DNA of 64,000 nt. Source: Mycoplasmatales bacterium. GTDB taxonomy: Bacteria; Bacillota_I; Bacilli_A; Mycoplasmatales; G965222545. This document shows, piece after piece, positions 133 to 52,757 of this stretch (its first letter is position 1; each line of letters opens with the position of its first letter). The stretch spans positions 559,945 through 623,944 of the forward strand of contig OZ244954.1 in the NCBI GenBank assembly GCA_965222545.1, written 5' to 3'. The translations under genes and the position numbers were made by a program. The notes beneath the pieces are model-generated. The model worked only from the letters and a program-made list of their open reading frames with translations. It was not told the DNA's origin and did not search any database.

Positions 133-1821
133 TTATTTACTTTTTGCCGTTTTTATTTTAAGAAGACGTTTTTTCTTTTTAGAGAAATATAGATAACTAC
201 CTACTATAATTCCAATTACTAAAACACCACCAATTAATCCACCAATAATAGCTCCTGTATTATTATTATTATTATGAGAAGGACTATTATAGGGTGTAAG
301 TTCAGTCATAGGAATGTAAATATTCATCATAGCAGGTGTAAGTGTTGTTCCTAAAGTTTCTTTAAAAAGAACTGATTTTCCATCACTTCCAAGTTTAATT
401 CCACCAATTAAAAGAGTACCATTTTTATCTTGAGAAATAGAATAAACACTAGCACCGTCAACTGAACTATATCCATTTCTATCAACAACTACTCAATCAT
501 CACCTTTCCCATCTTTTGAATAAAATAAAGATTTTTGTCCATAACTTGTTAAAAAGGTTCCTCCGATTCAAAGACTTCCATCACTTGCTTGAAATAATGT
601 ATTAAGTTGTTGTTTATTATTCTTATCACTTTTAACTCCAAATTTACTAGTGTCAACTTTTTTTCAAATATGACCAGGACCACCTTTTAGGCAATAAATA
701 TTTTGTGAATAATCATGAAATATAGGAAAAGGTGGTGCAGTATTAGATACTAAAGCTCAAATAGTTTTATCGTTTGTTTGATAAATCAAATTAACTGCAG
801 TATCATATTTAGCAAAAATATCTGATTGTTCATCAGTTCAATCTGTTATTGTATCCCAGCTTTTGCCTTTTTGTAAATAACATAAAGATTGTACGGAATT
901 ATTTGACATTGTAAATCCCCCGATTCAAATAGTACCATCAGTAGTTTGTTTAATCGTATTTATTGATGGACCATTAAAAACCTGGCTATTATATATTGAT
1001 GTTGTACTTTTTGTACTAAATTTTGTTACTTCTACAAATTTACTAGTATTATCTACTTTCCCGTTTTCTGTTCGATATAATGATGATGATTCCGTATAAC
1101 TTCTACAAAATCATCCGCCAAATCACATTGCATTATCTTGTGTTTGATAAATTGTTTTAATAATAGGAACAGGGTCACCATTATTATTTCCTTGGATAGG
1201 TTTTGATGTAATTCCTATTCATGATCCTTTTGCATTTAAATAAAATAAAGATTGATCATTTTCTTTACCAAGATTAACGCCACCAATAAATAATATACCT
1301 TCATTACTTTCAAAAATAGAATAAATAGTTGCTCTAAATCCCACTTTGGCATTACCACTATTACCAGCGCCAAAAAGTGTTGGTTCAACAGGTGCTCAAT
1401 CATCACCTTTTCCGTCATTTGAACAATATAATGAAGAAGGTAAAGTTGCTGGTACATTATTTTTATAATTTAATTTAGGATCTGAAGAATTTATATTGTC
1501 TTTTATATTATCTAATGGTACAGATATTCAAAGTTTTTTATCGCGACTTTCATATGTCGTTAAAATATTATCACTACCAGAACTTTGTAACTTATTATCT
1601 GGATCTGCATTAGATCAGCTATTTTCTAAATCTTTATTTCTTCATTTATTAAAATTATTTTTTATTTTAGAAGAAACATTACCTTTTGTTTGCTTATAAT
1701 TTGTATTTAATGTGTTTGTTTTATAATTATTATTCTCAATAATTATAATGGGTGTAATTAATATAGTAGTAGTTATTAAAATACTAATTAGCGTTATTCT
1801 TTTTTGTTTTATATTTTTCAT
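133..1821 (-). CDS. membrane-anchored beta-propeller-like repeat protein, array copy 1 (562 aa)
   Basis: ATG at 1821 and TAA at 133, 1689 nt in frame with TGA=Trp. N-terminal hydrophobic anchor MKNIKQKRITLISILITTTILITPIII. About six spaced repeats of type DG(T/S)xW(I/F)GG (NEGILFIGG, DNAMWFGGW, TDGTIWIGG, SDGSLWIGG, KNGTLLIGG). C-terminal TM AIIGGLIGGVLVIGIIVGSYLYF plus KKKKRLLKIK tail. Confidence 0.85.
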
Positions 1822-1872
1822 ATAATTATTATAATAAAAAATAAATATATTTTAATGTTTATAAGAAATAGT

Positions 1873-3558
1873 TTATTTACTTTTTGCCGTTTTTATTTTA
1901 AGAAGACGTTTTTTCTTTTTAGAGAAATATAGATAACTACCTACTATAATTCCAATTACTAAAACACCACCAATTAATCCACCAATAATAGCTCCTGTAT
2001 TATTATTATTATGAGAAGGACTATTATAGGGTGTAAGTTCAGTCATAGGAATGTAAATATTCATCATAGCAGGTGTAAGTGTTGTTCCTAAAGTTTCTTT
2101 AAAAAGAACTGATTTTCCATCACTTCCAAGTTTAATTCTACCAATTAAAAGAGTACCATTTTTATCTTGAGAAATAGAATAAACACTAGCACCGTCAACT
2201 GAACTATATCCATTTCTATCAACAACTACTCAATCATCACCTTTCCCATCTTTTGAATAAAATAAAGATTTTTGTCCATAACTTGTTAAAAAGGTTCCTC
2301 CGATTCAAAGACTTCCATCACTTGCTTGAAATAATGTATTAAGTTGTTGTTTATTATTCTTATCACTTTTAACTCCAAATTTACTAGTGTCAACTTTTTT
2401 TCAAATATGACCAGGACCACCTTTTAGGCAATAAATATTTTGTGAATAATCATGAAATATAGGAAAAGGTGGTGCAGTATTAGATACTAAAGCTCAAATA
2501 GTTTTATCGTTTGTTTGATAAATCAAATTAACTGCAGTATCATATTTAGCAAAAATATCTGATTGTTCATCAGTTCAATCTGTTATTGTATCCCAGCTTT
2601 TGCCTTTTTGTAAATAACATAAAGATTGTACGGAATTATTTGACATTGTAAATCCCCCGATTCAAATAGTACCATCAGTAGTTTGTTTAATCGTATTTAT
2701 TGATGGACCATTAAAAACCTGGCTATTATATATTGATGTTGTACTTTTTGTACTAAATTTTGTTACTTCTACAAATTTACTAGTATTATCTACTTTCCCG
2801 TTTTCTGTTCGATATAATGATGATGATTCCGTATAACTTCTACAAAATCATCCGCCAAATCACATTGCATTATCTTGTGTTTGATAAATTGTTTTAATAA
2901 TAGGAACAGGGTCACCATTATTATTTCCTTGGATAGGTTTTGATGTAATTCCTATTCATGATCCTTTTGCATTTAAATAAAATAAAGATTGATCATTTTC
3001 TTTACCAAGATTAACGCCACCAATAAATAATATACCTTCATTACTTTCAAAAATAGAATAAATAGTTGCTCTAAATCCCACTTTGGCATTACCACTATTA
3101 CCAGCGCCAAAAAGTGTTGGTTCAACAGGTGCTCAATCATCACCTTTTCCGTCATTTGAACAATATAATGAAGAAGGTAAAGTTGCTGGTACATTATTTT
3201 TATAATTTAATTTAGGATCTGAAGAATTTATATTGTCTTTTATATTATCTAATGGTACAGATATTCAAAGTTTTTTATCGCGACTTTCATATGTCGTTAA
3301 AATATTATCACTACCAGAACTTTGTAACTTATTATCTGGATCTGCATTAGATCAGCTATTTTCTAAATCTTTATTTCTTCATTTATTAAAATTATTTTTT
3401 ATTTTAGAAGAAACATTACCTTTTGTTTGCTTATAATTTGTATTTAATGTGTTTGTTTTATAATTATTATTCTCAATAATTATAATGGGTGTAATTAATA
3501 TAGTAGTAGTTATTAAAATACTAATTAGCGTTATTCTTTTTTGTTTTATATTTTTCAT
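1873..3558 (-). CDS. membrane-anchored beta-propeller-like repeat protein, array copy 2 (561 aa)
   Basis: Near-identical to copy 1 at 1740 bp offset, 1686 nt in frame. Differs by one fewer AAT (Asn) codon and a few substitutions. Confidence 0.85.
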
Positions 3559-3609
3559 ATAATTATTATAATAAAAAATAAATATATTTTAATGTTTATA
3601 AGAAATAGT

Positions 3610-5277
3610 TTATTTACTTTTTGTCGTTTTGATTTTAAGAAGACGTTTTTTCTTTTTAGAGAAATATAGATAACTACCTACTATAATTCCAATTACTAAA
3701 ACACCACCAATTAATCCACCAATAATAGCTCCTGTATTATTATTATGAGAAGGACTATTATAGGGTGTAAGATCGGTTATAGGAATGTAAATATTCATCA
3801 TAGCAGGTGTAAGTGTTGTTTCTAAAGTTTCTTTAAAAAGAACTGATTTTCCATCACTTCCAAGTTTAACTCCACCAACTAAAAGAGTACCATCTTTTTC
3901 TTGAGAAATAGAATAAACACTAGCACCATCAACTGAACTATATCCTTTTGAATCAACAACTGCTCAATCATCACCTTTCCCATCTTTTGAATAAAATAAA
4001 GATTTTTGTCCAGTTTTACCCATTGAAAAAGTTCCACCAATTCAAAGACTTCCATCATTTGCTTGAAATAATGTATTAAATTGTTGTTCACTTTTATCTC
4101 CAAATTTACTAGTGTCAACTTTTTTTCAAGTATGACCAGTACCACCATCTAGACAATAAATGCTCTGTGAATAATCATGTAATAATGGACTATTTGGTGG
4201 TGTATTAGATACTAAAGCTCAAATAGTTTTATCGTTCGTTTGATAAATTAAATCAACAGCAGTACTATCATTTTTACCAAAAATATCTGATTGTTCATCA
4301 ACTCAATCTGTAGTTGTGTTTCAGTTTTTACCTTTTTGTAAATAACATAAAGATTGTACAGGACTACTTGGTATTGCATATCCTCCAATTCAAATAGTGC
4401 CATCAGTAGTTTGTTTAATCGTATTTACTGATGGGCCTTTAGAATATTGACTATTATATATTGATGTTGTACTTTTTGTACTAAATTTCGTTACTTCTGC
4501 AATAATAATACCACTAACTTTCCCATTTTCTTTTCGATATAATGATGCTGATGCTCCAATAAGATTATTTTTAGGAAATCATCCTCCAAATCACATTACA
4601 TTATCTTGTGTTTGATAAATTATTTTAGTAATAGGAGCAGGATGACCATTACCTATTCCTTGAAAAGGTTCTGATGTAAGTCCTATTCATGATCCATTTC
4701 CTTCTAAATAAAATAAAGATTGATCATTATTTTTACCAAGATTTACACCACCAACAAATAATGTACCTTCATTACTTTCAAAAATTGAATAAATAGTTGC
4801 TCGATATCCCTTTTCCTCTTTACCACTATTACCAGCGCCAAAAAGTGTTGGTTCAACAGGTGCTCAATCATCACCTTTTCCATCGTTTGAACAATATAAT
4901 GAAGAAGGTAAAGTTGCTGGTACATTATTTTTATAATTTAATTTAGAATTAGAAGGATTTATATTATCTAATGGCACAGATATTCAAAGTTTTTTATCGT
5001 GAGTTTCATATGTTGTTAAAATATTATCACTACCAGAACTTTGTAACTTATTATCTGGATCTGCATTAGATCAGCTATTTTCTAAATCTTTATTTCTTCA
5101 TTTATTAAAATTATTTTTTATTTTAGAAGAAACATTACCTTTTGTTTGCTTATAATTTGTATTTAATGTGTTTGTTTTATAATTATTATTCTCAATAATT
5201 ATAATGGGTGTAATTAATATAGTAGTAGTTATTAAAATACTAATTAGCGTTATTCTTTTTTGTTTTATATTTTTCAT
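3610..5277 (-). CDS. membrane-anchored beta-propeller-like repeat protein, array copy 3 (555 aa)
   Basis: Same architecture, 1668 nt in frame with TGA=Trp. Closest to copy 4. Confidence 0.85.
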
Positions 5278-5301
5278 ATAATTATTATAATTAAAAATAG
5301 T

Positions 5302-6954
5302 TTATTTATTTTTTGTCATTTTGATTTTAAGAAGACGTTTTTTCTTTTTAGAGAAATATAGATAACTACCTACTATAATTCCAATTAATACAATATCACC
5401 TATTATTCCACCAATAATAGCTCCTGTATTATTATTATTATGAGAAGGACTATTATAGGGTGTAAGATCGGTTATAGGAATGTAAATATTCATCATAGCA
5501 GGTGTAAGTGTTGTTTCTAAAGTTTCTTTAAAAAGAACTGATTTTCCATCACTTCCAAGTTTAACTCCACCAACTAAAAGAGTACCATCTTTTTCTTGAG
5601 AAATAGAATAAACACTAGCACCATCAACTGAACTATATCCTTTTGAATCAACAACTGCTCAATCATCACCTTTCCCATCTTTTGAATAAAATAAAGATTT
5701 TTGTCCAGTTTTACCCATTGAAAAAGTTCCACCAATTCAAAGACTTCCATCATTTGCTTGAAATAATGTATTAAATTGTTGTTCACTTTTATCTCCAAAT
5801 TTACTAGTGTCAACTTTTTTTCAAGTATGACCAGTACCACCATCTAGACAATAAATGCTCTGTGAATAATCATGTAATAATGGACTATTTGGTGGTGTAT
5901 TAGATACTAAAGCTCAAATAGTTTTATCGTTCGTTTGATAAATTAAATCAACAGCAGTACTATCATTTTTACCAAAAATATCTGATTGTTCATCAACTCA
6001 ATCTGTAGTTGTGTTTCAGTTTTTACCTTTTTGTAAATAACATAAAGATTGTACAGGACTACTTGGTATTGCATATCCTCCAATTCAAATAGTGCCATCA
6101 GTAGTTTGTTTAATCGTATTTACTGATGGGCCTTTAGAATATTGACTATTATATATTGATGTTGTACTTTTTGTACTAAATTTTGTTACTTCTACAAATT
6201 TATTTGTAGTATTTACTTTCCCATTTTCTGTTCGATATAATGATGCCGATGCTCCAATAAGATTATTTTTAGGAAATCATCCTCCAAATCACATTGCATT
6301 ATCTTGTGTTTGATAAATTGTTTTCACAATAGGAGCGGGATCACCATTACCTATTCATTGAAAAGGTTCTCCTCCTGTAAGTCCTATTCATGATTCACCT
6401 GGATTTAAATAAAATAAAGATTGATCATTATTTACACCAAGATTTACACCACCAACAAATAATGTACCTTCATTGCTTTCAAAAATTGAATAAATAGTTG
6501 CTCGATATCCCTTTTTCTCTTTACCATTGCTACCAGCTCCAAAAAGTGCTGGTTCAACAGGTGCTCAATCATCACCTTTTCCATCGTTTGAACAATATAA
6601 TGAAGAAGGTAAAGTTGCTGATAAATTATTTTTATAATTTAATTTAGAATTAGAAGGATTTATATTATCTAATGGTACAGATATTCAAAGTTTTTTATCG
6701 TGAGTTTCATATGTTGTTAAAATATTATCACTACCAGAACTTTGTAACTTGTTATCTGGATCTGCATTAGATCAGGTATTTCATTTATTAAAATTATTTT
6801 TTATTTTAGAAGAAACATTACCTTTTGTTTGCTTATAATTTGTATTTAATGTGTTTGTTTTATAATTATTATTCTCAGTAATTATAATGGGTAATATAGT
6901 AATAGTTATTAAAATACTAATTAATGTTATTCTTTTTTGTTTTATATTTTCCAT
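5302..6954 (-). CDS. membrane-anchored beta-propeller-like repeat protein, array copy 4 (550 aa)
   Basis: Same architecture, 1653 nt in frame. The C-terminal half is almost identical to copy 3 (the 89-aa wrong-frame ORFs 3879-4148 and 5574-5843 are identical). Confidence 0.85.
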
Positions 6955-6998
6955 ATAATTATTCTATCACTTTTCACTTTATTTTAAAAGAAATATTA

Positions 6999-8762
6999 TT
7001 ATTTTTTTATCTTATTTTTAATTGAAGAATGTGCTTTAGTATGAGTCGTTACTTTAGTAAAAAAATGTTTTAATAAAGGAATTTGTTTTAGTTTATGAAC
7101 TACAAAAGCAATAACTTTTTCTCTTTTCCCTTTTCTTTTTTTCTTTAATAAATAAGTTATTCCTATAGCAATAAAACCTAATATAGATAATACAGTTACT
7201 ATAGAAATAATAATAATTAATGAATAACCATTAGCACCATTTAGTTTTATAAGATGTAATATGGGCAAAGCTGGTGTAAGAATACTCATGGCTGGTGTAA
7301 TAATATTTTTTACTATGTTTGCTTTATAAAGGACTATTTTACCAGCAGATCCAAGTTTAAATCCACCAACTCAAAGATAACCGTCATCACTTTGACGTAG
7401 AGAATAAACGCAAGCTCCATAAATTGAACTTGAACTATATCCGTTAGTATCAATAGGTTTTCAATCATCACCTTTTCCATCACCTGATCTAAATAAGGTT
7501 CTCTGTCCACCAGACTTTAATAAGAATGTTCCTCCGATTCACAAACTACCATCGCCTGTTTCAAATAATATATTAAATTGTTGTTTAACATTTCCCAAGC
7601 TTTTATTTCCAAGATCACTTGTATCTTCTAGTTGTCAGTAGTGACCAATTCCACCATTTAAGCGATAAAGTTTGTTAGAAGAATTATAAAATATAGGATT
7701 AATTGCTGGAGTAATAGATACTAATAGTAAAATTGATTTATCTTTTTTTTGATAAATAAAATTAACAGTGCTATTAATATGAGCAAAAATATTTGTTTCT
7801 TCATTAATTCAATTTGCTGCATCTTTTCAACTTTTGCCTTTTTCTAAATAACACAAAGATTCATTAAAATTAATTCCCATTGAGTGTCCACCAACTCAAA
7901 TAGTACCGTCAGCAGTTTGTTTAATTATTTTAATTGATGGACCATTAAAATATGTACTATGGTTAGGTTTTCTTCCGCTGAATTTTGTTACTTTTTCATA
8001 TTCAGTTTCATCATTTATTTTCCCATTATCTGCTCTATATAGTGATGAAGAACCATTATAATCACCATCGGGATATCATCCGCCAAATCACATTGCGTTG
8101 TCTTCTGTTTGAGAAATTGTTTTAACTACCGGCGAAGAACCCTCATCTTTTATTTGTTCAAAAGGATATTGCTTAACTGCTGTTCATTTTCCACCTGAGT
8201 TTAAATAAAATAAAGATTCATTGCCTTGTTCACCAAGATTTTTACCACCAACGAACAATACTCCTTCTTTACTTTCAAAAATTGAATAAATAGTTGCTCT
8301 AATATTTGTCGGCTCATTCCCGTCCTTGCCAGCACCAAAAAGTGTTGGTGCAATAGGAGTTCACTCATTACCTTTTCCATCATTTGAACAAAATAAGGAA
8401 GTAGGTAAAGCAGCAGATGTATTATTTTTATAACCTGGTTTAGGATTTGAAATAGTTCTAATATTTAAATTATCTAATGGTGCAGATACTCAAAGTTTTT
8501 TATCAGCAGTTTCATATGTTGTTAAAACATTATTAGGAGTAGACTTTCATAACTCGTTATTTGCGCCACCGTTAGATCAAGCATCTCCTAAATTATTTTT
8601 TCTTCATTTATTAAAATTGTCTTTTGTTTTAATAGAAACATTATTGCTTGTTCCCGGTGTATTTATTTTATAATTATTTTTCTGAACAATTATAACTGGA
8701 CTAATTAATATAACAATTCCGATCAAAATATTAAATATTTTTAGAATTTTACTTATTTTCAT
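6999..8762 (-). CDS. membrane-anchored beta-propeller-like repeat protein, divergent array copy 5 (587 aa)
   Basis: 1764 nt in frame with TGA=Trp. Hand translation shows the same signal anchor (MKISKILKIFNILIGIVILISPVII), WFGGW/WVGG/WIGG repeats and a C-terminal TM, but a longer basic tail. Confidence 0.8.
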
Positions 8763-12399: not shown

Positions 12400-13557
12400 C
12401 TAAACTTTTTCTTTTAATCATTTTTCATATGATATATTACTTTTTTTAATATTATGTTCCTTACATAATAATTGAGCATTTGATAAGATTGTTCTTCCGC
12501 CTTCAGATCAAGGATCTTTATGGTCAAGTTCTAATTCATTATATGAGTCAATTCCACAACCTCTTTCATTACATTTTGATTTTATTTTATACATTGTATC
12601 TTTATGAGATTTAGTAAAAAATCTTTGTGAATGACATTGTAAATTCTTTGTCATCAATCTATCATTAAAAATTTTATGTACGTTAATATTTCATTTTTTT
12701 ATATCATTATCTTCTTTTATACAATTTTCATAATTTTCAATAATTTTTTCTATGTTTCATTTTTTATTAATAATAAATGATGAAAGTTCTAATATTAAAT
12801 CATCTCTGGGATTAGCAATTAACCTTTTTAAGATACCAAATAATTCAATTGTTTTGGCATAAATTTCGCCAGAAAAAAAATCATTATTTCTTTGTTTTTC
12901 TAATGAAGATCTTATTCTTAAACTTTTTGCATCACTCTCTTTTTCCTCTAATAATCCTAAATAACAGTATAAAAAATAAATTGTTTGCTCTCCTCTTCTA
13001 ATTTTTTTTATTCCATCGGTTACTCTTGATTTTTCATTTATATATTTTTCAAAGCCTTTAAATCATTTTCCATAAAATAATCCTCGTAAACATTCATATT
13101 CAATTAATGGAATACTATTTTTATTTATAGTATCGAATGATATTTCTTCATCTTCTCTACATCCTTTTCTTACTGTTACTTCAAACTCATATTCTAGTAA
13201 TTTTTGTTTTTGTGCTTGACTTAATGTAATAAAGGTAAATTCATCACTTTTTATTCTTGTAGTTATAACTATATTCTCTTTATTCGATGGATTACAAAAA
13301 TAATATAATGACAATATTCTCTGTTTTCCGTCATGAATATTATATGTGCCATTTTCATTTTTTCAGAAATAAAGTGCAGGAAGTCTTATCCCATATTCTA
13401 AAATGGATTTTATTACATTGCCGGCCTTCGTAATGCTACCATCATATACCCTTATCTTAGGTAAAATATGATAAATAAAATTCCTTTGTGTTGTATTATC
13501 ATAATATAATTTTCCGGATTCAATTCATTCAAAAATTTCCTTTACTTTAATTTTCAT
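12400..13557 (-). CDS. DUF262 (ParB/GmrSD-N-like, HDGKQR motif) - HNH nuclease fusion (385 aa)
   Basis: ATG at 13557 overlaps the methylase stop (TAATG) and TAG is at 12400. 1158 nt in frame. N-terminal ..YNIHDGKQRILSLYYF.. (DGQQR-type). C-terminal [32 protein letters not shown] (HNH). Confidence 0.75.
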
Positions 13558-14651
13558 TATTTTCTCCTTCTTCTTGCGAGTATACCGTGAAATCTAGGTA
13601 CCATTTTATTTGTAAATTTATGTTTACAAGGATTACGTTCTGGTTTTGTAGTGTTAAAAAATTTTTTATAATTTGTTCCATATCACTCAAAATCATCAGG
13701 ATTAAATTTATCAAATAAGCCGATAGAAGAAAAAAACCAATCATAATAATCATCAGGTAAAATTCCTACGTGTTTTATTCATATTGGATTTGAATTATCT
13801 TTCATAATAATGCTTTTTATTTTTTCATATTCACCAATATAATTTTTAGTTAAAAATCCATTATTATGTTTTTCGTAAACATTTTCATCAAAAGTAGTTA
13901 TTCAATCGCATGCAACTTTTTTCTTTTTTATATTTAATTCCATTTTATTAAGATCTCAATTTTCAAATTCGATACTTTTATGTCTCCCATATCCTAAATA
14001 TAATTCTTTTTTTCATAATTTTAATCCTACGCACGGATTTACCCTATTTATAAAAGCGGTTAGACTTATTAAGTTCACTTTTTCATTTACAACCTTATCT
14101 AAAAAAAGTCTCATTAAGCTAAACGGAGGATTAGTTATTATTAAATCATATTCATCAAAATTATATTTAAATGCGTCTATTCCTCTTCCTATAGCGGAAT
14201 TGTATCCACTAAATGTTCATTTTTTTATTTTTCATTCTGGAGCAAATGTTATAACGGCTTTTAAAAAATTACATCTTGGTCCTGATAATATTTTTCCATT
14301 AATTTCAAATTTATTCTCAGCCTTATTATATTTAAAAATTGCAGACTCATCCATTAATTCTGGTTCATTTTGTAAATTACCTTTATAAAGAAAACATTCA
14401 TCAACACCACCATTTTTATTAAACGTTAATGTTAATCCGTGAATTTCTGGAAATTCATCAAATAAATCTCAATCAAAAGGGCTTAAACCTGAAAAATTAC
14501 AAAAAAGCTCCTTATTATAATTAGATAATTCTTCAGTTATTGTTTGTAATGATGTATAAAACTCATCATTTTTTTTTGTTCCAAGGGGGGTAGTTTGACC
14601 ACTTTTATATTTTATTTTATTAATAATTTTAGTTTGTTTATTGTTAGCCAT
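13557..14651 (-). CDS. N6-adenine DNA methyltransferase, EcoRI-methylase-like family (364 aa)
   Basis: ATG at 14651 and TAA at 13557-13559, 1095 nt in frame. N-terminal KKNDEFYT. Catalytic motif DLIITNPPFSLMRLFL followed by ..LYLGYG. The ORF-track start at 14702 is rejected. Confidence 0.8.
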
Positions 14652-14660
14652 TATTTTATA

Positions 14661-14666
14661 ATTATA
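14661..14666 (-). promoter_or_regulatory. candidate -10 box (TATAAT) for the methyltransferase, ~10 nt upstream of ATG
   Basis: TATAAT on the minus strand. The same sequence is carried into the duplicated chimera (~18148). Confidence 0.3.
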
Positions 14667-14687
14667 TAATAAATTACTATATAAATT

Positions 14688-14713
14688 AAAAAAATCAACC
14701 AATGAATGGTTGA
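14688..14713 (-). terminator. rho-independent terminator hairpin (tcaacca-N5-tggttga plus T-run on minus strand)
   Basis: Perfect 7-bp stem at 14695-14701/14707-14713, followed on the minus strand by a T7 run. It lies downstream of the gene ending at 14742. Related hairpins occur at ~16021-16045, ~18182-18200 and ~19510-19535. Confidence 0.6.
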
Positions 14714-14741
14714 ATTTATTTAAATACTTTGATTTAAATTA

Positions 14742-15932
14742 TTAAACTAATTTAAAATTTTGTAAATAACTATAAAATTTATCATTTCCGATTTGTTGTA
14801 TGCTTGGCAATAAACCGTTGTGGAAATTAGTTCCAAAATTATTAAATGATGTTTTTAGATTATCATAGCTTATTACTCCTTCTATATGTCATCCAGCATG
14901 AATTACGTTTACACCAATTTGTGCAAATTGATTAATAATTATTTTAATTGGATTATTTTGATCAGTAAAAATACTTACTACATCTTTTATTAACGATACC
15001 ATTAGACCATCAACAGTTGGCATAAATTGTTTATTTATTACAGTAAAGATTATTTTTCTTTCAATAGTTGCAGGAATTCCTTGAGTTGATCTAAGTCCTT
15101 GAACATTTTTTAAATTAGCAACTGCATTTTTCCCAATATGGGGAATTTCAAAATTATTTAAAATAGTACTGAAATTTTTAACTTGAGTATCAATTGTTGC
15201 TTTAATTACATTAAATTGACCTTCACAGTGGTTTTGAATTGCATCAATCATTTGGTTTCTATTAACAAGTGGATTAAATACACCTATTGAGTTACTAATC
15301 ATTTCTGTAACTTGATGCTTTATTTTAAATTTTAGTCCATATCCATAATCTTCAAATTGATGAATAATTTTAGTTTTCGCGGGGTTTAAAAAGTCAGTGT
15401 TTAAAAAGTCAATTAAACCATTTATTCCTCTAATATTTAATATATCTATAAATTGTTCAGGTGTTAATTTATTGTGAGTTCCTGTTCCAAAACTAGTTAA
15501 TATGCTTACAAGCTTATTAACTAACTCTGTTTGTTCTTTTGCTATATCAGCAATTATTTTTACAAAATCGTCTGTTATTGTCTTATTAATTCCGTTTTGT
15601 AAAGTTTTAGGGAATGCTTTTTTAAAATCATTTTGAAAAGGTGTTTTAATAGCATTTAATGTGTTTGAAATACTTTTCAAAACTGGAACAGTAAAGTTAT
15701 TATTTAAATAATCACTAAATATTTTCCCATTTTCATTTAATCATTCAGGAAGTGTATTACCATCATCACCAAGATTATTATTTTTACTACCTAAATTATT
15801 AGTAATATTTGGAGTAAGTTGACTTGATTTTGAAGCCTGAGTCTTTAATATTGCAACGCTTGATGATGTTAAAATTAAACCACCCATTAGCAAGCTTATC
15901 AATATGTTTTTTTTAGTTTTTATGTTTTTCAT
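14742..15932 (-). CDS. secreted/anchored hypothetical protein, family P2, copy A (396 aa)
   Basis: ORFs 15741-15932 and 14889-15680 join in frame through TGA, and the gene continues past TGA at 14889 to TAA at 14742. N-terminal anchor MKNIKTKKNILISLLMGGLILTSSSVAIL. Core LTSFGTG..LTPEQFI..G.NGLID is shared with family P1. Confidence 0.75.
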
Positions 15933-16066
15933 TTTTTATTTTCCTTTTGTTTATATATATTTATTGTACCATAATAATTAAATATTCCAAATATTATAAT
16001 TTTAAATATAAAATAAAAAATTCAACCAATGAATAGTTGAATTTATTTTAATATACTTAATTTAAA

Positions 16067-17209
16067 TTAATAAGTTAATTTATAGTTTAATAGCTCATTA
16101 TAAAAACCATTATTTTCAATTTTTTTTATGTCTGCTAATAAACCATTACGAAATGAGTTTTCAAAATTAGTAAATGAATCTAATAAATCATTATATTTTA
16201 TAGTAATTCCAGGTGCATGATATCCAACACTTAAAGCATGTATACCAATTCTTGCTAACTGATCAAAAACTGATTCAACTGAATCTTCATGTGTTTTAAA
16301 AACACTTGTTACTTTACCTAATATAGATACCATTGAACGATCAATAGTTGGCATAAATACCTGATTCATTATGTTAAAGACTATTTTTCTTTTAATCATT
16401 CAAGCGCTTTCTTCAGGTTTTCTTTGGTTTTGAAGTTTTATTAAATTAATATTTACTTTTTTATTAGTATGAGGAATTTTAAAATCATATAAAACAAGTT
16501 TAAAGTTTTCTACTTGATAAGAAATTATTTTATAAATTTGACTATATTCACTATCTGATTGATTTTTAACAACATTAATCATTTTCTATTTATTAACATA
16601 CGGAATATTATTTGGAATTGATTCTCCAACTAGTTTTAACATTTCAGCTTTTATATATGATGTAATTTGATCAGCAAAATTTTCAAATTCATGAAGTAAT
16701 TTAATTTTTGCTGGTATTATACATTTATTATTTACAATATCAATTAAAGCATTTACTCCTTTTGTTTCATAAATATTAATGAATTCATCAGGTGTTATAT
16801 TATTATGGCCTTTACCTGTTCCAAAACTAGTTAATAAAGTTTTAAGTTTTTCAACTACTACCATTTGCTCTTTTGCTATTTTATCAAATACTTTTATATA
16901 TAAACGTGGTACTACAGAATCAATTTTTCCTCTTATAGCTTCAGGAAATGCATTTCTAAAATTATTATAAAATGGTACCTTAATGTTATTTAATGTACTA
17001 TCAATACCTTCACACATTGGATTAACAAAGTGACGAGTTATATGATTAGCAAGTCTTCCTCCGTTATCGTTCAATCATGCAGAAAGCGGATTACCACTTT
17101 CACTTGTTAAATTGCTAATAAAAACATTTGTAGTAGTTAGTTTTCTACTTCGAACTGCTTTAGTACTTAATATTGCTACACCTGATGTTGTTAAAATTAC
17201 ACCCGCCAT
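16067..17209 (-). pseudogene. family P1 paralogue, copy A, interrupted by in-frame TAG
   Basis: ATG at 17209 and TAA at 16067, 1143 nt. TAG at 16586-16588 where copy B has CAG (20076-20078). TGA at 16400 is read as Trp. Confidence 0.65.
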
Positions 17210-17360
17210 TGCTATACTTATTATTTTATTTTTTTTACCTTTATATAATTATAATATATTATAAATATTTAATTTAAATATATAAATAAATATAATATTA
17301 ATTTTTAGAAATATCTATTTTTTATTATCATTATCTTTGTTTTCTAATTCATCATTGCTA

Positions 17361-18138
17361 TCAGTATGCCTTTTTTTTAGCTACCTCTCCGGCTGCTGTT
17401 TCTTTAGCAATAACCTCTTTATTTAGATCAGCTTTATTCTTTTCGTCGACATCATGTTGTTTTTGAGCTTTTAACTTAATATCCTCTTTAGTTTCTTTGT
17501 TTAAGCCATAATTCAACAGTTCTGTTGGTTTATTAGCTTTTTGTTTCTTGATGGCTTGATATATTACCACTAGTCCTTTTTTCGCTCCGGGTATTGCACC
17601 TTTTACTAATACATAATTACTATCTACATCGATGTTGATAATTTCCAAATTTTGAATTGTCACTAGATTAGTTCCCATTCTACCTGGCATTTTTTTGTGT
17701 TTAAAAATTCTATTTTGAGTTATTGGTCCCATTGAACCAACCCCGTGGTGATAACCGGAACCATGACCTTTTGGTCCAATTTTATGTCCATATCTTTTAA
17801 TAACACCTGCGAACCCTTCCCCCTTAGTAATTCCTGTTACATCAACAAATTCTCCAACTTTAAAAATATCACTGCAACTAATTTTACTACCAAGATCGTG
17901 CCCAGTCATTCCTTTAATTTCTTTTGTATACTTAAATACATCAGAATTAGCTTTTTTAAAATGGCCAATTTGTGGTTTTATTGCTCTTTGTTTTTTAACA
18001 GGAGATATTGATAATTGTAATGCGTCATAGTTATCTTTACTATCAAACTCATCATTTTTTTTGTTCCAAAGGGGGGGTAGTTTGACCACTTTTATATTTT
18101 ATTTTATTAATAATTTTAGTTTGTTTATTGTTAGTCAT
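17361..18138 (-). pseudogene. chimeric gene: methyltransferase promoter plus first 31 codons fused to rplC lacking its first ~41 codons
   Basis: 18045-18138 matches 14559-14651 (methylase 5' end). 17361-18044 matches rplC 20804-21532. The junction ..NDEF|DSKDNYDALQ is in frame codon-to-codon, but C7/T3/A8 here versus C6/T2/A9 in the methylase puts the ATG (18138) out of frame. A T8 versus T7 run (17371-17378) changes the C-terminal tail. Confidence 0.75.
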
Positions 18139-18228
18139 TATTTTATAATTATATAATAAATTACTATATAAATTAAAAAAATCAACCAATAAATGGTTGA
18201 ATTTATTTAAATACTTTGATTTAAATTA

Positions 18229-19422
18229 TTAAACTAATTTAAAATTTTGTAAATAACTATAAAATTTATCATTTCCAATTTCTTGTATTTTTGGCAGTAA
18301 AATGTTGTGGAAATTAGTTCCAAAATGATTAAATGATATTTTTAAATTATCATAGTTTATTGCGCTTACTGGTAGAGTTCATCCAGCTTTAATTACGTTT
18401 ACACCAATTTGAGCAAATTGATTAATAATTATTTTAATTGGATTATTTTGATCAGTAAAAATACTTACTACATCTTTTATTAACGATACCATTAGACCAT
18501 CAACAGTTGGCATAAATTGTTTATTTATTACAGTAAAGATTATTTTTCTTTCAATAGTTGCAGGAATTCCTTGAGTTGATCTAAGTCCTTGAACATTTTT
18601 TAAATTAGCAACTGCATTTTTCCCAATATGGGGAATTTCAAAATTATTTAAAATAGTACTGAAATTTTTAACTTGAGTATCAATTGTTGCTTTAATTACA
18701 TTAAATTGATCTTCACAGTGGTTTTGAATTGCATCAATCATTTTGTTTCTATTAACAACTGGATTAAATTCACCTATTGAATTACTAATCATTTCTGTAA
18801 CTTGATGCTTTATTTTAAATTTTAGTCCATATCCATAATCTTCAAATTGATGAATAATTTTAGTTTTCGCGGGGTTTAAAAAGTCAGTGTTTAAAAAGTC
18901 AATTAAACCATTTATTCCTCTAATATTTAATATATCTATAAATTGTTCAGGTGTTAATTTATTGTGAGTTCCTGTTCCAAAACTAGTTAATGTACTTACA
19001 AGCTTATTAACTAACTCTGTTTGTTCTTTTGCTATATCAGCAATTATTTTTACAAAATCATTTGTTATTGTCCTATTAGCTCCGTCTTGTAAAGCTTTAG
19101 GGAATGCTTTTTTAAAATCATTTTGAAAAGGTGTTTTAATAGCATTTAATGTGTTTGAAATACTTTTCAAAACTGGAACAGTAAAGTTATTATTTAAATA
19201 ATCACTAAATATTTTCCCATTTTCATTTAATCATTCAGGAAGTGTATTACCATCATCACCAAGATTATTATTTTTACTACCTAAATTATTAGTAATATTT
19301 GGAGTAAGTTGACTTGATTTTGAAGCCTGAGTCTTTAATATTGCAACGCTTGATGATGTTAAAATTAAACCACCCATTAGCAAGCTTATCAATATGTTTT
19401 TTTTAGTTTTTATGTTTTTCAT
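18229..19422 (-). CDS. secreted/anchored hypothetical protein, family P2, copy B (397 aa)
   Basis: Same as copy A at +3490 bp, 1194 nt in frame. The signal segment is identical (ORFs 15741-15932 = 19231-19422). Confidence 0.75.
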
Positions 19423-19556
19423 TTTTTATTTTCCTTTTGTTTATATATATTCATTATACCATAATAATTAAATATTCCAAATATTATAATTTTAAATATA
19501 AAATAAAAAATTCAACCAATGAATAGTTGAATTTATTTTAATATACTTAATTTAAA

Positions 19557-20698
19557 TTAATAAGTTAATTTATAGTTTAATAGCTCATTATAAAAACCAT
19601 TATTTTCAATTTTTTTTATGTCTGCTAATAAACCATTACGAAATGAGTTTTCAAAATTAGTAAATGAATCTAATAAATCATTATATTTTATAGTAATTCC
19701 AGGTGCATGATATCCAACACTTAAAGCATGTATACCAATTCTTGCTAACTGATCAAAAACTGATTCAACTGAATCTTCATGTGTTTTAAAAACACTTGTT
19801 ACTTTACCTAATATAGATACCATTGAACGATCAATAGTTGGCATAAATACCTGATTCATTATGTTAAAGACTATTTTTCTTTTAATCATTCAAGCGCTTT
19901 CTTCAGGTTTTCTTTGGTGTTGAAGATTTATTAAATTAATATTTACTTTTTTATTAGTATGAAGAATTTTAAAATCATATAAAACAAGTTTAAAGTTTTC
20001 TACTTGATAAGAAATTACTTTATAAATTTGACTATATTCACTATCTGATTGATTTTTAACAACATTAATCATTTCCTGTTTATTAACATACGGAATATTA
20101 TTTGGAATTGATTCTTCGACTAGTTTTAACATTTCAGCTTTTATATATGATGTAATTTGATCAGCAAAATTTTCAAATTCATGAAGTAATTTAAGTTTTG
20201 CTGGTATTATATATTCATTGTTTATAACATCAATTAAGGCGTTTACTCCTTTTGTTTCAAAAATATTAATAAATCGATCAGGTGATATATTATTATGGCC
20301 TTTACCTGTTCCAAAACTAGTTAATAAAGTTTTAAGTTTTTCAACTACTACCATTTGCTCTTTTGCTATTTTATCAACTACTTTTATATATAAACGTGGC
20401 ACTGAAGAATCAATTTTCCTCTTATAGCTTCAGGAAATGCATTTCTAAAATCATTATAAAACGGTACCTTAATGTTATTTAATGTACTATCAATACCTTC
20501 ACACATTGGATTAACAAAGTGACGAGTTATATGATTAGCAAGTCTTCCTCCGTTATCGTTCAATCATGCAGAAAGCGGATTACCACTTTCACTTGTTAAA
20601 TTACTAATAAAAACATTTGTAGTAGTTAGTTTTCTACTTTGAACTGCTTTAGTACTTAATATTGTAACACCTGATGTTGTTAAAATTACACCCGCCAT
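19557..20698 (-). pseudogene. family P1 paralogue, copy B, frameshifted
   Basis: 1142 nt from ATG 20698 to TAA 19557, not divisible by 3. T4 at 20414-20417 where copy A has T5 (16924-16928). The N-terminal ~95 codons are out of frame with the rest. Confidence 0.65.
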
Positions 20699-20803
20699 TG
20701 CTATACTTATTATTTTATTTTTTTTATCTTTATATAATTATAATATATTATAAATATTTAATTTAAATATATAAATAAATATAATATTAATTTTTAGAAA
20801 TAT

Positions 20804-21652
20804 CTATTTTTTATTATCATTATCTTTGTTTTCTAATTCATCATTGCTATCAGTATGCCTTTTTTTAGCTACCTCTCCGGCTGCTGTTTCTTTAGCAATA
20901 ACCTCTTTATTTAGATCAGCTTTATTCTTTTCGTCGACATCATGTTGTTTTTGAGCTTTTAACTTAATATCCTCTTTAGTTTCTTTGTTTAAGCCATAAT
21001 TGAACAGTTCTGTTGGTTTATTAGCTTTTTGTTTCTTGATGGCTTGATATATTACCACTAGTCCTTTTTTCGCTCCGGGTATTGCACCTTTTACTAATAC
21101 ATAATTACTATCTACATCGATGCTGATAATTTCCAAATTTTGAATTGTCACTAGATTAGTTCCCATTCTACCTGGCATTTTTTTGTGTTTAAAAATTCTA
21201 TTTTGAGTTATTGGTCCCATTGAACCAACCCCGCGGTGATAACCGGAACCATGACCTTTTGGTCCAATTTTATGTCCATATCTTTTAATAACACCTGCGA
21301 ACCCTTTCCCCTTAGTAATTCCTGTTACATCAACAAATTCTCCAACTTTAAAAATATCACTGCAACTAATTTTACTACCAAGATTGTGCCCAGTCATTCC
21401 TTTAATTTCTTTTGTATACTTAAATACATCAGAATTAGCTTTTTTAAAATGGCCAATTTGTGGTTTTATTGCTCTTTGTTTTTTAACAGGAGATATTGAT
21501 AATTGTAATGCGTCATAGTTATCTTTGCTATCTTTAGTTTTAACTTGAGTAACTGTATTAGGTGTAACTTTTATTATAGTAACCGGTATTGCTTTACCGT
21601 TAATATTAAAAACCTTTGTTTGATTATCTTTTATTCCAATTAAACCATTCAT
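20804..21652 (-). CDS. rplC: 50S ribosomal protein L3 with Lys/Glu-rich C-terminal extension (282 aa)
   Basis: MNGLIGIKDNQTKVFN..GKGFAGVIKRYGH..GSMGPITQNRIFKHKKMPGRMG. Immediately follows rpsJ. Confidence 0.95.
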   Translation of the reverse strand: MNGLIGIKDNQTKVFNINGKAIPVTIIKVTPNTVTQVKTKDSKDNYDALQLSISPVKKQRAIKPQIGHFKKANSDVFKYTKEIKGMTGHNLGSKISCSDIFKVGEFVDVTGITKGKGFAGVIKRYGHKIGPKGHGSGYHRGVGSMGPITQNRIFKHKKMPGRMGTNLVTIQNLEIISIDVDSNYVLVKGAIPGAKKGLVVIYQAIKKQKANKPTELFNYGLNKETKEDIKLKAQKQHDVDEKNKADLNKEVIAKETAAGEVAKKRHTDSNDELENKDNDNKK

Positions 21653-21660
21653 ATTTTTCC

Positions 21661-21975
21661 TTAATTAATTTCAACACTTACACCAGCTGATAAAACTAAC
21701 TGAGATAATTCACTTAATAATGGTTTATTAGCGTTATCAACAACTATTAATCTTTTGTAGGTTCTACGTTCAAATTGTTCTCTACTATCTTTAAATTTAT
21801 GTGTTGCCCTTAAAACTGTAAATTTTTCTGTTTTAACTGGCAAGGGAATTGGTCCTCTTACTTTGGCACCATTTGATTTAATTATTTCAATAATTTTTTT
21901 AGCATTTCTGTCAATTATTTTACTATCAAAGCTGGTTAGCCTTATTTTTACAATTTTATTATTAATTTTACTCAC
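21661..21975 (-). CDS. rpsJ: 30S ribosomal protein S10 (104 aa), GTG start
   Basis: KIRLTSFDSKIIDRNAKKII..GPIPLPVKTEKFTVLRATHKFKDSREQFERRTYKRLI. Confidence 0.95.
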   Translation of the reverse strand: MSKINNKIVKIRLTSFDSKIIDRNAKKIIEIIKSNGAKVRGPIPLPVKTEKFTVLRATHKFKDSREQFERRTYKRLIVVDNANKPLLSELSQLVLSAGVSVEIN

Positions 21976-22075
21976 AGTATAATACTTTATTTTCTATCGT
22001 TATATTTTATATAAAATATAGACAAATCTATTATACATAGTTTTCTGAAAATTTTAATATTTATTTATTAACAGA

Positions 22076-23503
22076 TTAAATTCAATATCCTCTAGTTTTA
22101 AAACCAAGTGGCCCATCATATCAAAAGTTATTAAATTCATTAGAATAATTACTTTTGTTTTTATCATCCTTATCTATGTAAAATAGTTGTGAATTCTGTT
22201 CAATCATTCCCCTTAACGTATGAGAGACTGTGTATAAATTGTTTGATGAAACTGTTTGGTTCAAAGCAAGAGAGTATTTTGAATTTTTTTCTACTTCTTC
22301 TTTACAAGCCTTCTCTTCTCAATCTTTATAAATATTAATTTTAACATAAAATATTGCTTCATTTATTATTGGATTTGGAGGTAAAACGCAATTAGTAAAA
22401 TAATAAGAAAATAATTGACAGGAACTTTTTAAAATCTTTTTTTGTTTATCTACATTAAATATTACAGGATGTGAAATCATAAATGCTATTTGATCATTTA
22501 TTACATAATTAATTCCATCTAAAATTACATTACTTGAATAAAGGTCTCAAATATGGTTAACAAATATTTTAAATAACGGACCATAAAAATCAAAAGCTTT
22601 TTTAACTTGTCCATCTTTTGATTTGTTAACTGTAATGCCTTCTTTTTTATAATTTTCAAATAAATTTATTGGAGCGAAAGCAGCTGGTCTCATTAATGAT
22701 TCACCAATTGTAATTACAATTCTATTATATAAACTAATGATTAGATTTTTTTGTGTAACTACTCCAGAAGCAGCAACATCAACTAATGAATTTTTCATAT
22801 ATTTAACTAAATTATGAATATCAGTACTTTTTTCAGTATCAATACCATTATATGTTGAAAAACTTACTTCTGAACCAATCCCTTCTACAAAAAATTGTTT
22901 AATTGATTGAGCAAAAGATACAGAAAAATCAGTTAAAGCATTTGTATAATTATCGTCTGTTCCTGATCTATCTATTTTGCCGTTTTCATCTTTGTCTATT
23001 GTTGCCATATTTAAATATGTGTTAATTGTTTTAATTGATGTTGGAATAAAATTATTTGCTATTATCTTAATAGGAGTATAAGAAGTAAGATTTGCATCTA
23101 AAATTCTCTGCCTAATATTTTCAAGAACTGGAATTTCTCCTCTAAACTGTTGAAATAAAATATTTTGTAAATCAATTCTAGCTTCTCAAAAATCTTTTGT
23201 TTTGCCACTTTTTAAATTATTTTTAGAAACTTTAAAAAATGCTTTAGCATTTGCACTTAATTTATTAATTCTTTCTATATCCTTAGAAATTCCAGGATCA
23301 AAATTTTGTCCTTTTACATATGGATTTCTATTTGCAACAGCATAAGCAGTTGTAAATTGTTCTTGACTATAATTAAAAAATGAAAATAAATTATAAACTA
23401 AAGTTCCAGCTACCGAAAAGGCAATTATAACTATTGCAATAAAAATATAAGTAATTCTTTTCCCTATTTTATGTTTTTTTATTTTTTTTACTCGTAATTC
23501 CAT
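22076..23503 (-). CDS. N-terminally membrane-anchored hypothetical protein (475 aa)
   Basis: ORFs 23186-23503 and 22547-23008 join in frame through TGA and continue to TAA at 22076. 1428 nt. TM segment ITYIFIAIVIIAFSVAGTLVYNLF. Confidence 0.6.
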
Positions 23504-23530
23504 TTATTTATCTATCATTATTATACTAAA

Positions 23531-25309
23531 TTATATAAGATTTTCAAGATCATTAATCATTTTAGAAAGAAACGAAAAAGCATTATCATAAGTTTTATTA
23601 TTATTTAAATCAATATCAATTTTTTTCAATATATCTAAAGGTCAATCTCTATTACCATTTTTTAAAAGTAAAAGATATTTTTTATAATATGATTTATCCT
23701 CATATATTTTACTAACAATTGCACAAGCACATATCATTCCAATCGCATATTTATAAACATAAAAATCTCTATAAAAATGTGGAACATATAAACCTCAAAG
23801 TCCTTGATAATCATCATCATAATTCATCGTGCTTGGTCTTGGGTAATATTCATTATTTAATTCCTTGCATTTTTTAGATATATTTTCTGCTGTTAAAACA
23901 TTACCATCTTCAACAAAAGTATGTGATCATTGTTCAAACTCTGCAAATTGTAATTGTCTGAAAACTGTTGCTATGAAATCTTTAATACTACTATTAATTA
24001 TTGATTTTTTAAATTCTTTATCTTTATTATTTTTAATTAAATATTTTATTAAAAGCATTTCGTTAGTTATTGATGCTATTTCGGCTAAAAAAATTGGATA
24101 TCCACAATGTTGATAGGGTTGTTTCTCTTGTGAATATAGAGAGTGAATTGAATGTCCCATTTCATGAATAAGCGTTGATACATCTCTAAATTTACTATTT
24201 CAGTTCATTAATATATAGGGTAGCTCTTCTCAAACACCATATGAATATGCTCCTGATCTTTTGCCATCATTTGGCATATAATCAATACACTTATTTTCAA
24301 GAATAAAGTCGATTTTCTTAGAATAATCATTGCCTAGTGGTGCTAACGCTTTTCTCAATAAAGTGTGTGCTTGTTCAATTGTAAATTCTTTTGAACTATC
24401 TTTAAATAATGGTTTATTTAACATTCAAGGTGTTGGATTGGGGATTTTTAATAATTTTAATTTTATTTCTAAATATTTTTTATTTAAATAAGAATATTTT
24501 TTTGAATAGTTAATTAAATTATTATAAAATTTCTCATCTACATTATCGGAAAATAATTCAGATTCTAAAGTGTTTTTAAATTTATAAATTTTGCTAATTT
24601 TATTAGCTGTTAAAACATTATAGTAATATGCATTACTTAAACTATTTCTAAATTGATAATAGGTTTTTCAGAAATTTTTATATGATGTTTCTCTTAATTT
24701 ATCATCTTTTGAATTATAAAGTTTTGCATGTGTTCCTTGTGTTAATTTGTGTTTCTTTTTTTTACTATCAACTGCATCATTAAATTTAAAATCACCATCT
24801 GTTAATGAAGTAAATAATTCGCCTGGAGCTCCTAACGCTTGACTTATTTCACTAACAAGTTTTTCTGATTCATCACTTAAACGATGTTTTTCAGATCTAA
24901 AAATTCTTTCAAAAGTAATCTTATAATCTTTTAATTTGTCAGTTTCTAAATATTTTCTTATTTTCTTTTTATTATTAATTATTTCGTTAGTGGTTCAAAA
25001 TAATTTACTTGAAATTTTTGAGTCTATTGTTTCAAATTTTAATAATTCTTCAGTTGATTTAGCAATTGTTGTATCTTTTGATTGTGTATTATATAAAAAT
25101 GATGAAAGTTTACTAGAAATAATTGATAATTTTTGAGATAGTTGAAGATACTTTTGAAAGTTTTCAATATTAGCTGTAGTTTTCTTTCTTAGTTTATTTA
25201 TTTCGTGTGAAATATCTTCCATTTCTATATAGAACTTATTAATATTTTTGATTTGCAAGATTTTTTTCAAATCTCACTTATATTTATCTGGTATTTCTTT
25301 TCTTTTCAT
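23531..25309 (-). CDS. pepF: oligoendopeptidase F (M3B metallopeptidase, 592 aa)
   Basis: HEMGHSIH zinc motif, 1779 nt in frame with TGA=Trp. Fragments 24995-25270, 24230-24424 and 23927-24160 are all in one frame. Confidence 0.85.
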
Positions 25310-51544: not shown

Positions 51545-52757
51545 GATTAATATAAAACATCCCGCTACCTGCATATTTATTTATAAGGGCGTTTCTTTTC
51601 TTTAAATGTTCTAAAATAATTGGATTACTTTGAAGTAAATTAATTATATTATTATCCTTGTCATATGAGTTAATTTTATCATTTAAATTATCTTTGTTAA
51701 ATAACATAAGCGTTTTTTCTTCAGAAATATAAATATAATTCTTTTTCTCTTCATCAGTGTAATTTAACTTATTAATAAATTGTTTCATCTCATCATTTGT
51801 TTTAAAGATTTTATAATTATAAAATTTTCTTTTTCTAAAACAATCAACCATTTTATTTAAAATTTTATCTTCTTCAAATGCTAAATTTTTAATAAAAGTA
51901 TTAAAAGTATTATCATCTAAGTATAAGTATTCATCAGCGTTTAAATCTCCTTTTAATAATATCTTTTCTATCAAGGGATGAATAGTGATTTTAAACTTAT
52001 ATTTTTGTAATAAAAGGAACGCAACTCTTTTTATTATGCACAACAAGTGAATGTCAATTGCAGTATTTTTAGGGTTATAGAAAAATTGAACAAATAAATG
52101 ATATCTATTAGATATAAAGCTTTCTAACACAATAGATAAATTTCTAGAAAATACTACTTCATTGTTATCAATAACAATTCCGGTTAATAATTTTCTTCAT
52201 TCTATCTTTTTATAACTAAAACCAGTATGAAAAGAATCCCTTAATACATAGTCTAATCTATCAATATCTATCGTTGAACTAATTATATTTGAAATATATT
52301 TATGTTTATATTTTTTATCTAAAACTAAAACAATATCATTTGCTAATTTAGGATTAATTTTATTTAATATGTTATTTAATTCTTTATTTTCTAATATAAT
52401 TTGTTTAGAATATTCTTCATGTCTAATTTTTGTTATTTTTTCAAAAGTATGACTTCAAGGTCCGTGACCAATATCGTGTAGTAATGCAGATAATATTAAT
52501 AATTTTTTTTTATATTCACTTAGTTTAGAATAAAAACTATTATTTTTTATTAATTGGCAAGCCAAATAAAAAACTCCACAAGAATGAACAAATCTATTGT
52601 GGTTTGCGTTTGGATAATAATTATATAATCCGCCAAGTTGGTTAATATATTTTAACCTTTGAAAAGCAACAGTATCAATAATTGGTATAACAAAGGCTGG
52701 AATCTCAATGTTATTGTAAATACTGTCATGAATTTTAATTGTTTTACCATTAAACAT
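51537..52757 (-). CDS. HD-domain phosphohydrolase (SAMHD1/dGTPase-like), 406 aa
   Basis: NRFVHSCGV...LLHDIGHGPWSH..DIDRLDYVLRDS motifs. 1221 nt with TGA=Trp. Confidence 0.8.

Follow-up and report, generated by a model that had tools for sequence, protein, structure and literature searches.

The window considered here, that is, the whole stretch of 64,000 nucleotides that was analysed, corresponds to positions 559,945-623,944 of a single-contig genome of 641,330 bp; coordinates below are those of the window unless a genome position is named. The genome contains 24.3% G+C, and 87.9% of it lies within open reading frames (ORFs) of at least 100 aa, with a mean length of 349 aa, when TGA is read as tryptophan. 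This reading (translation table 4) is required by the in-frame TGA codons present in the methylase gene, in the L4 gene and in most of the long ORFs. In a protein search, the closest named L3 proteins were those of Spiroplasma and allied mollicutes (50-56% identity), and the 30 nearest genomes all belong to other families of the same order, matching only in the conserved L3 core (65-73%). The source organism is an isolated mollicute lineage, with neither a close relative nor a second strain among the genomes compared. The genes of the locus follow one another on the minus strand in the order rpsJ, rplC, gene A, gene B, a chimeric ORF, gene A', gene B', a methylase gene and a nuclease gene, and the main features are as follows (a slash marks the breakpoint here and below).

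21975-21661, minus strand: rpsJ, directly before rplC
20804-21652, minus strand: the real rplC, encoding uL3 of 282 aa (PF00297, 70.3 bits; aligned over residues 2-207 to solved uL3 chains)
18045-21532, minus strand: copy 1 of a tandem duplication, 3,488 nt, with rplC codons 41-282, frameshifted gene A, gene B, a terminator, and the methylase promoter plus 31 codons (+1 nt)
19557-20698, minus strand: gene A of copy 1, disrupted by the loss of 1 nt at 20418 (A4 against A5)
18229-19422, minus strand: gene B of copy 1, 397 aa, intact, with an N-terminal hydrophobic segment
18044-18045, minus strand: the sole novel junction, GAG TTT/GAT AGT, from a three-way comparison of rplC, junction and methylase
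14559-18044, minus strand: copy 2, 3,486 nt, with the L3 remnant, gene A' (nonsense mutation), gene B', a terminator, and the promoter plus the first 31 codons of the real methylase
17358-18044, minus strand: L3 remnant, uL3 residues 41-264 with N90D, K116E, R140H, S177N and F217L, then KAYW and a stop
16067-17209, minus strand: gene A' of copy 2, broken by CAA to TAA at 16588
14742-15932, minus strand: gene B' of copy 2, 396 aa, intact
13557-14651, minus strand: the real EcoRI-type adenine methylase, 364 aa (PF13651, 50.6 bits, cut-off 26.4), donor of the promoter and 31 codons
12400-13557, minus strand: nuclease of GmrSD_N/DUF262 type plus HNH (HNH 28.3 bits, cut-off 21.4; GmrSD_N 28.3 bits, below the cut-off of 33.2)

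The tandem duplication and its junction

Comparison of the locus with itself by BLAST and MAFFT revealed two head-to-tail copies (21532-18045 and 18044-14559, minus strand) that abut without any spacer and are 97.6% identical, with 77 mismatches and 7 gap openings in 3,495 alignment columns. The repeated unit comprises everything from rplC codon 41 through methylase codon 31, both codons included in full, and both parental genes are intact at its outer ends (rplC at 21652-20804 and the methylase at 14651-13557). The real methylase begins with MANNKQTKIINKIKYKSGQTTPLGTKKNDEF/YTSLQ, the 31 codons before the slash occupying 14651-14559, and the real L3 reads ..VKTK/DSKDNYDALQ at the breakpoint, with D41 at 21532. 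At the nucleotide level the methylase reads ..GAT GAG TTT/TAT ACA.., rplC reads ..ACT AAA/GAT AGC AAA.. and the junction reads ..GAT GAG TTT/GAT AGT AAA... The earlier, sequence-only reading had proposed a codon-to-codon fusion of the methylase, with its own promoter and ATG, to a truncated L3, and this three-way comparison confirms it. Microhomology, which many join-point fusions of tandem duplications show although it is not obligatory, was not found at the breakpoint; the parents, TTT/TATACA and AAA/GATAGC, have no common adjoining base, and the join was therefore illegitimate and homology-free. Since neither parent was cut within a codon, the fusion was in frame from the outset, which would have been a one-in-three accident.

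Such a junction, in which the end of the unit (the 5' part of the methylase) is joined to the start of the unit (the interior of rplC), fits a join-point fusion produced by tandem duplication. A precedent, at least as far as it is recounted in the pertinent part of a later paper, is offered by the his genes of Salmonella, which became fused to novel promoters at the join points of tandem duplications (Anderson and Roth 1978, as cited in PMC11111574). In both cases the duplication has one novel junction, at which the promoter and 5' end of one gene come to stand before the 3' part of another. In contrast to the Salmonella fusions as recounted there, the fusion described here is natural rather than laboratory-selected, is old (approximately 1-3% divergence between the copies) and has since decayed; moreover, its breakpoint has no common bases, and nothing indicates that the fusion was what selection favoured.

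The divergence between the copies is uneven, reaching 0.8% in the L3 part, approximately 1-1.5% in the spacers and 2.7-2.9% in genes A and B, and every indel of a single base that separates them is located within or next to a homopolymer run. We ruled out an assembly artefact as the source of the duplication on the grounds of the 77 differences, the 7 indels and the separate disabling mutations in each copy. Likewise, loss of recA was ruled out as the cause of the persistence of the repeat, because recA is intact in this genome. The survival of the repeat to approximately 1% divergence in its least diverged parts, despite an intact recA, could hint at selection for the duplication, although not necessarily for its L3 part.

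Searches with the junction pattern gave no matches in the collections genome_contigs and metagenome_contigs (from which records of the genome itself may be left out), and a protein search for relatives of the remnant recovered nothing closer than 56% identity apart from the remnant's own cluster, which has 2 member sequences, both on 1 contig. Two sequencing runs of one study, neither of them recorded as RNA, contain the stretch (0.79 and 0.54 of the sampled words), while a third run of the same sample contains next to none of it.

Genes A and A' were broken independently, by different mutations. No Pfam family was recognised in either A or B, except for one weak match below the cut-off. With protein B as the query, no member of the family was found in the 297 other genomes scored within the order (a further 3 were left without a score), and the family is multi-copy in its own genome, with 6 matches. 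The A/B pair is lineage-specific; it is this pair that the duplication actually doubled, and the L3 remnant is its scar.

Two further observations concern the B family. Towards the 3' end of gene B (18327-18412 versus 14840-14922), the differences form a dense patch, with 17 differing columns in 86 nt, including a 3-nt indel. A third, broken copy of B (genome positions 21,707-22,954) agrees with B' throughout this patch except at one site, where it matches neither, and hence the patch is derived in copy 1; this suggests gene conversion by another paralogue or local diversification. In addition, a further pair of the A/B family is present at genome positions 21,720-24,237: first a broken B-like copy that contains stops and whose two pieces show 89% and 84% identity, and then an intact paralogue of 402 aa (48%).

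Present state of the chimeric ORF

The chimeric ORF extends over 18138-17358 (minus strand), with its ATG at 18138-18136, and carries the following small features.

18182-18200, minus strand: terminator-like hairpin with a T-run after gene B, duplicated along with the methylase promoter
18148-18153, minus strand: TATAAT box, 9 nt upstream of the ATG, the same as that of the real methylase (14666-14661); a putative promoter element, read from the sequence
18055-18077, minus strand: tract cluster C7-T3-GGAAC-A8, against C6-T2-GGAAC-A9 in the real methylase (14569-14590)
18040-18138, minus strand: present ATG-frame ORF, 32 codons, methylase-derived and then frameshifted, with its TAG at 18042-18040
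17371-17378, minus strand: A8 run, A7 in rplC (20860-20866), shifting the frame of a lineage-specific tail

The 67 nt preceding the ATG (18205-18139) are those found upstream of the real methylase (14718-14652) except for one base, which lies in the hairpin loop. To judge from this identity, the promoter copy is intact and the region is probably still transcribed. Since the TATAAT box is located only 9 nt before the ATG, the junction transcript likely has a very short leader or none. A promoter scan found 82 promoter-like sites versus 69.1 +/- 8.7 in shuffled sequences, a comparison that is uninformative in DNA so rich in A+T.

Downstream of the ATG, the three runs of the tract cluster set the frame. 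On the plus strand they read G7 (18071-18077), A3 (18068-18070) and T8 (18055-18062) at the junction, and G6 (14585-14590), a 2-base A run and T9 (14569-14577) in the real methylase. The differences of +1, +1 and -1 add up to a net +1, and as a consequence the ATG frame, which now reads MTNNKQTKIINKIKYKSGQTTPPLEQKKWWVW, stops after 32 codons. These findings bear out the earlier proposals that the ATG stands one base out of frame through a net +1 in homopolymers, and that a single rearrangement created an in-frame fusion which later tract changes put out of frame. As for the direction of change, methylase homologues from two other genomes (45% identity) have the same N-terminal length and keep the G-T of ..P(L/S)GT.., with ..SGQKTPSGTISNDECYT.. 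in their N-terminus where the real methylase has ..SGQTTPLGTKKNDEFYT.. here; hence, the tracts of the real methylase are ancestral and the three changes are derived in the junction copy.

At a distance of 62-84 nt from the ATG, the C7, T3 and A8 runs place a frame-setting tract in the 5' coding region, and three length changes have occurred within these 23 nt versus three other indels in the remaining 3.4 kb. The cluster mutates fast, and one change would have been enough to inactivate the gene; in this respect it also resembles a contingency locus. G/C runs of at least 6 are rare in this genome (28 in 641 kb).

In the L3 frame, 243 codons are open from a GTG at 18089 to 17358, in agreement with the sequence-only reading. 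No Shine-Dalgarno-like motif precedes this GTG, the 26 nt upstream of it having no G at all, while the real rplC has AAGGA. Thus, no continuous reading frame starts at a credible start codon: the ATG frame ends after 32 codons, and the L3 frame is entered only at the GTG. The length of the open frame was rejected as a sign of selection, because only 3.8% of the possible substitutions create a stop and six of them would leave the frame open by chance with P = 0.79.

The L3 remnant and its interpretation

The genome has only one full-length match to rplC. The remnant resembles bacterial uL3 in that it matches PF00297 (67.1 bits, cut-off 22), and its protein is 97.7% identical to residues 41-261 of the resident uL3 (5 differences in 221 residues). 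The 221 shared codons carry six substitutions, five nonsynonymous and one synonymous (S42), giving a pN/pS of 1.3 from these small counts; the probability of at least five of six being nonsynonymous is 0.64 at an omega of 1 and 0.0075 at an omega of 0.1. Hence, the L3 part evolves as a neutral sequence. Only two of the five amino-acid changes could be polarised, the outgroups being variable at the other three positions. These two are at K116 (in the KGKGF motif) and R140 (in YHRGVGS), which are invariant in 29 of 29 aligned L3 sequences and at all nine outgroup loci, and where the remnant has E and H, respectively. Because both residues are invariant elsewhere, K116E and R140H arose in the remnant, in which the KGKGF motif and the HR..GS loop of a functional uL3 have thus each lost an invariant residue.

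The remnant starts at residue 41, and its globular domain is incomplete, with the N-terminal strands absent. In an AlphaFold model of the real L3 (mean pLDDT 68.9, from a 29-row alignment), residues 3-16, 21-28 and 32-38 form strands (block pLDDT 91-94), all three of which are missing from the remnant; the stretch 120-154, modelled at low confidence, is the long loop that carries R140. The part lost is accordingly three strands of a single globular domain in the model, rather than an N-terminal globular part as had been supposed, and without these core strands we infer that the remnant could not replace L3. At the other end, the proposed second run stood (T8 at 17371-17378 against T7 at 20860-20866 on the plus strand), but its effect is smaller than the replacement of approximately 26 residues first estimated: the last 18 residues of L3 (RHTDSNDELENKDNDNKK) are replaced by four (KAYW). 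No counterpart of the shifted tail was found in any of the nine outgroup L3 sequences, and the tail lies beyond the aligned region 2-207. As this second frameshift affects only a tail absent from other L3 proteins, it is not in itself disabling. In sum, the remnant differs from a functional uL3 in the absence of residues 1-40, in E116 and H140, in having no in-frame ATG and in its changed tail.

With regard to the real protein, residues 208-282 of uL3 (20804-21028) form a Lys/Glu-rich C-terminal extension of approximately 75 residues, which is absent in all nine outgroups and is predicted, at low confidence, to be partly helical (226-254). A solved L3 chain of mollicute type (7ood_b, 287 residues) aligns to the real uL3 as far as residue 245.

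Taking these results together, we consider it probable, at roughly 0.85, that the chimeric ORF is a by-product pseudogene of the tandem duplication, belonging to the known type of join-point fusions. The ancestral order on the minus strand would have been rpsJ - rplC - A - B - methylase - nuclease. In the proposed mechanism, one homology-free unequal exchange joined the first base of rplC codon 41 to the end of methylase codon 31; as the sequence shows, this doubled the 3.49 kb between them and necessarily created at the join point a new gene, in which the methylase promoter, ATG and 31 codons stood in frame with L3 residues 41-282. The product of this fusion was presumably useless or harmful, and the gene has since drifted, acquiring the three changes in the C/T/A tracts, the one change in the A-run near the 3' end and the five amino-acid changes, two of them at invariant residues. 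Its main product from the ATG would now be a 32-residue peptide, and a product in the L3 frame would arise in traces at most, from the unfavoured GTG or by slips of the polymerase or the ribosome on the C7 and A8 runs.

The locus is instructive as a clean natural case in which a tandem duplication yields a chimeric gene that is in frame and already equipped with a promoter, and it shows how quickly such a product decays when it is not useful. It is also of practical relevance for annotation, as gene callers will report the 243-codon frame as a second L3 (it is already a called protein in the protein collection); the proper label for this frame is pseudogene fragment, with rplC entered as a single gene. 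Among the papers listed in a literature search, judged by title and the opening of the abstract, none described an rplC fragment or duplicate in a mollicute.

The duplication might instead have been selected, being kept either for the doubled A/B genes or because it captured the methylase promoter for A' and B', in which case the L3 remnant would be a transcribed leader. Tandem duplications are known to bring about promoter capture at the join point (Anderson and Roth 1978, in the portion of PMC11111574 that cites it), gene B is intact in both copies and belongs to a lineage-specific, multi-copy family (see above), and the repeat has persisted to approximately 1-3% divergence despite the intact recA. 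However, both copies of A are broken, omega between the copies is 0.9 for B/B' and 0.6 for A/A', and A' has retained the spacer in front of it, with 1 difference from the spacer of A in 105 bases, so that no new promoter was needed; nor is there any sign of higher expression. We therefore regard this explanation as improbable, although selection for the duplication as such is possible, and would be compatible with the L3 part being a scar.

It is very unlikely that the homopolymer lengths were miscalled, through sequencing or assembly error, and that the fusion is still in frame in the organism. The position of the single-base indels, in or beside homopolymer runs, is what such errors would give, but the assembly is not riddled with frameshifts, as the high proportion of the genome in long ORFs indicates. 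Furthermore, although one miscall would be enough to bring the frame back, arriving at the parental tract lengths would take three errors within 23 nt, one of them in a run of 2 to 3 bases, where miscalls are unusual, and K116E and R140H are independent of the tract lengths.

Marginally less credible still is a slippage-gated contingency gene, in which changes in C7, T3 and A8, or slippage on them, would switch on a methylase-tagged, truncated uL3 that slows ribosome assembly by acting on 23S rRNA or assembly intermediates and so produces heterogeneity of growth. If true, such switchable expression of an L3 fragment would represent an uncommon way of generating translational heterogeneity. At its origin the fusion was in frame, its promoter and ATG are intact, its frame-setting tracts lie within the first 85 nt and have changed three times, and the G/C runs involved are of a rare length in this genome. 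Moreover, methyltransferase genes of mycoplasmas are switched by changes in the length of poly(G) and poly(GA), according to the section of PMC9465063 that deals with them, and as in these contingency loci, homopolymer runs at the 5' end set the frame of the methylase here, with single-base steps between copies. Unlike the loci treated in that section, the runs here are short (C6-7, A8-9), and the downstream frame is not under purifying selection. A second parallel is provided by the insect endosymbionts Buchnera and Blochmannia, where slippage on long poly(A) corrects 12-50% of transcripts, as stated in the relevant part of the review PMC5009743; here too the genome is reduced and A+T-rich, and a slip of one base could restore the frame. 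In the cases given in that part, however, the downstream gene is needed and conserved, whereas here an intact rplC lies elsewhere and the fragment is degenerate, and the A run comprises 8 bases as opposed to the long runs, and runs of 9, named in the review.

Several points speak directly against a switch. The tracts (7, 3 and 8) are short in comparison with the runs in the cited cases, and the states through which they passed (+1, +2 and +1, in any order) need never have been in frame. The pN/pS of 1.3, the loss of invariant K116 and R140 and the absence of three core strands are not what a maintained fragment would present, and no relatives or strains that could show conservation were found in the collections searched. 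The earlier suggestion that on/off slippage of an interfering L3 fragment might matter hence finds no support, and its own alternative, a dead duplication scar, is the better reading in view of the neutral drift, the lost invariant residues and the broken copies of A. That the junction gene acts as a phase-variable inhibitor of ribosome assembly, its uL3 fragment competing for the 23S rRNA site and throttling assembly of the large subunit in a subpopulation of cells, is the least probable of all the proposals.

Surroundings of the duplication and other loci of the genome

The methylase assignment rests on a PF13651 match that covers residues 167-336 of the submitted protein, a translation in which NPPF can be read. 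The junction copy, consisting of methylase codons 1-31 only, has neither the catalytic region nor the NPPF motif. The nuclease gene overlaps the methylase stop by 1 nt, and a pairing of methylase and DUF262-type genes is also present beside the 45%-identical homologues in two other genomes. The two genes form a conserved module, which is possibly mobile.

The adjacency of rplC and rplD is broken in this genome, rplD (PF00573, 198 bits) being located at genome positions 555,262-555,816, approximately 24.9 kb downstream of the rplC stop, while an L4-like ORF directly follows L3 at all nine outgroup loci. The interval between them (window 1-20803 together with genome 555,262-559,944) contains the A/B genes, the methylase-nuclease pair, a fucose isomerase, an FGGY kinase and five propeller-protein genes, and looks like accessory DNA inserted, or accreted, inside the S10 operon. 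The propeller genes are five tandem paralogues of 550-587 aa (133-8762, minus strand) with 13-15 TGA codons each. Their products combine a hydrophobic segment at the N-terminus with beta-propeller repeats of the Reg_prop type (PF07494, 57-60 bits in three of the five, those tested) and a membrane anchor at the C-terminus; judging by this domain arrangement, they probably constitute a surface-protein array.

Simple-sequence runs also occur far from the duplication. An ORF at genome positions 52,445-53,620 (minus strand), with ..FAGIGSQSLGGGF.. in its N-terminus, is one that we take to be cytosine-5 methyltransferase-like by motif, and it has a G8 run 51 nt from its ATG. Together with an A9-G11 run at genome position 353,993, this G8 run is a candidate simple-sequence switch.
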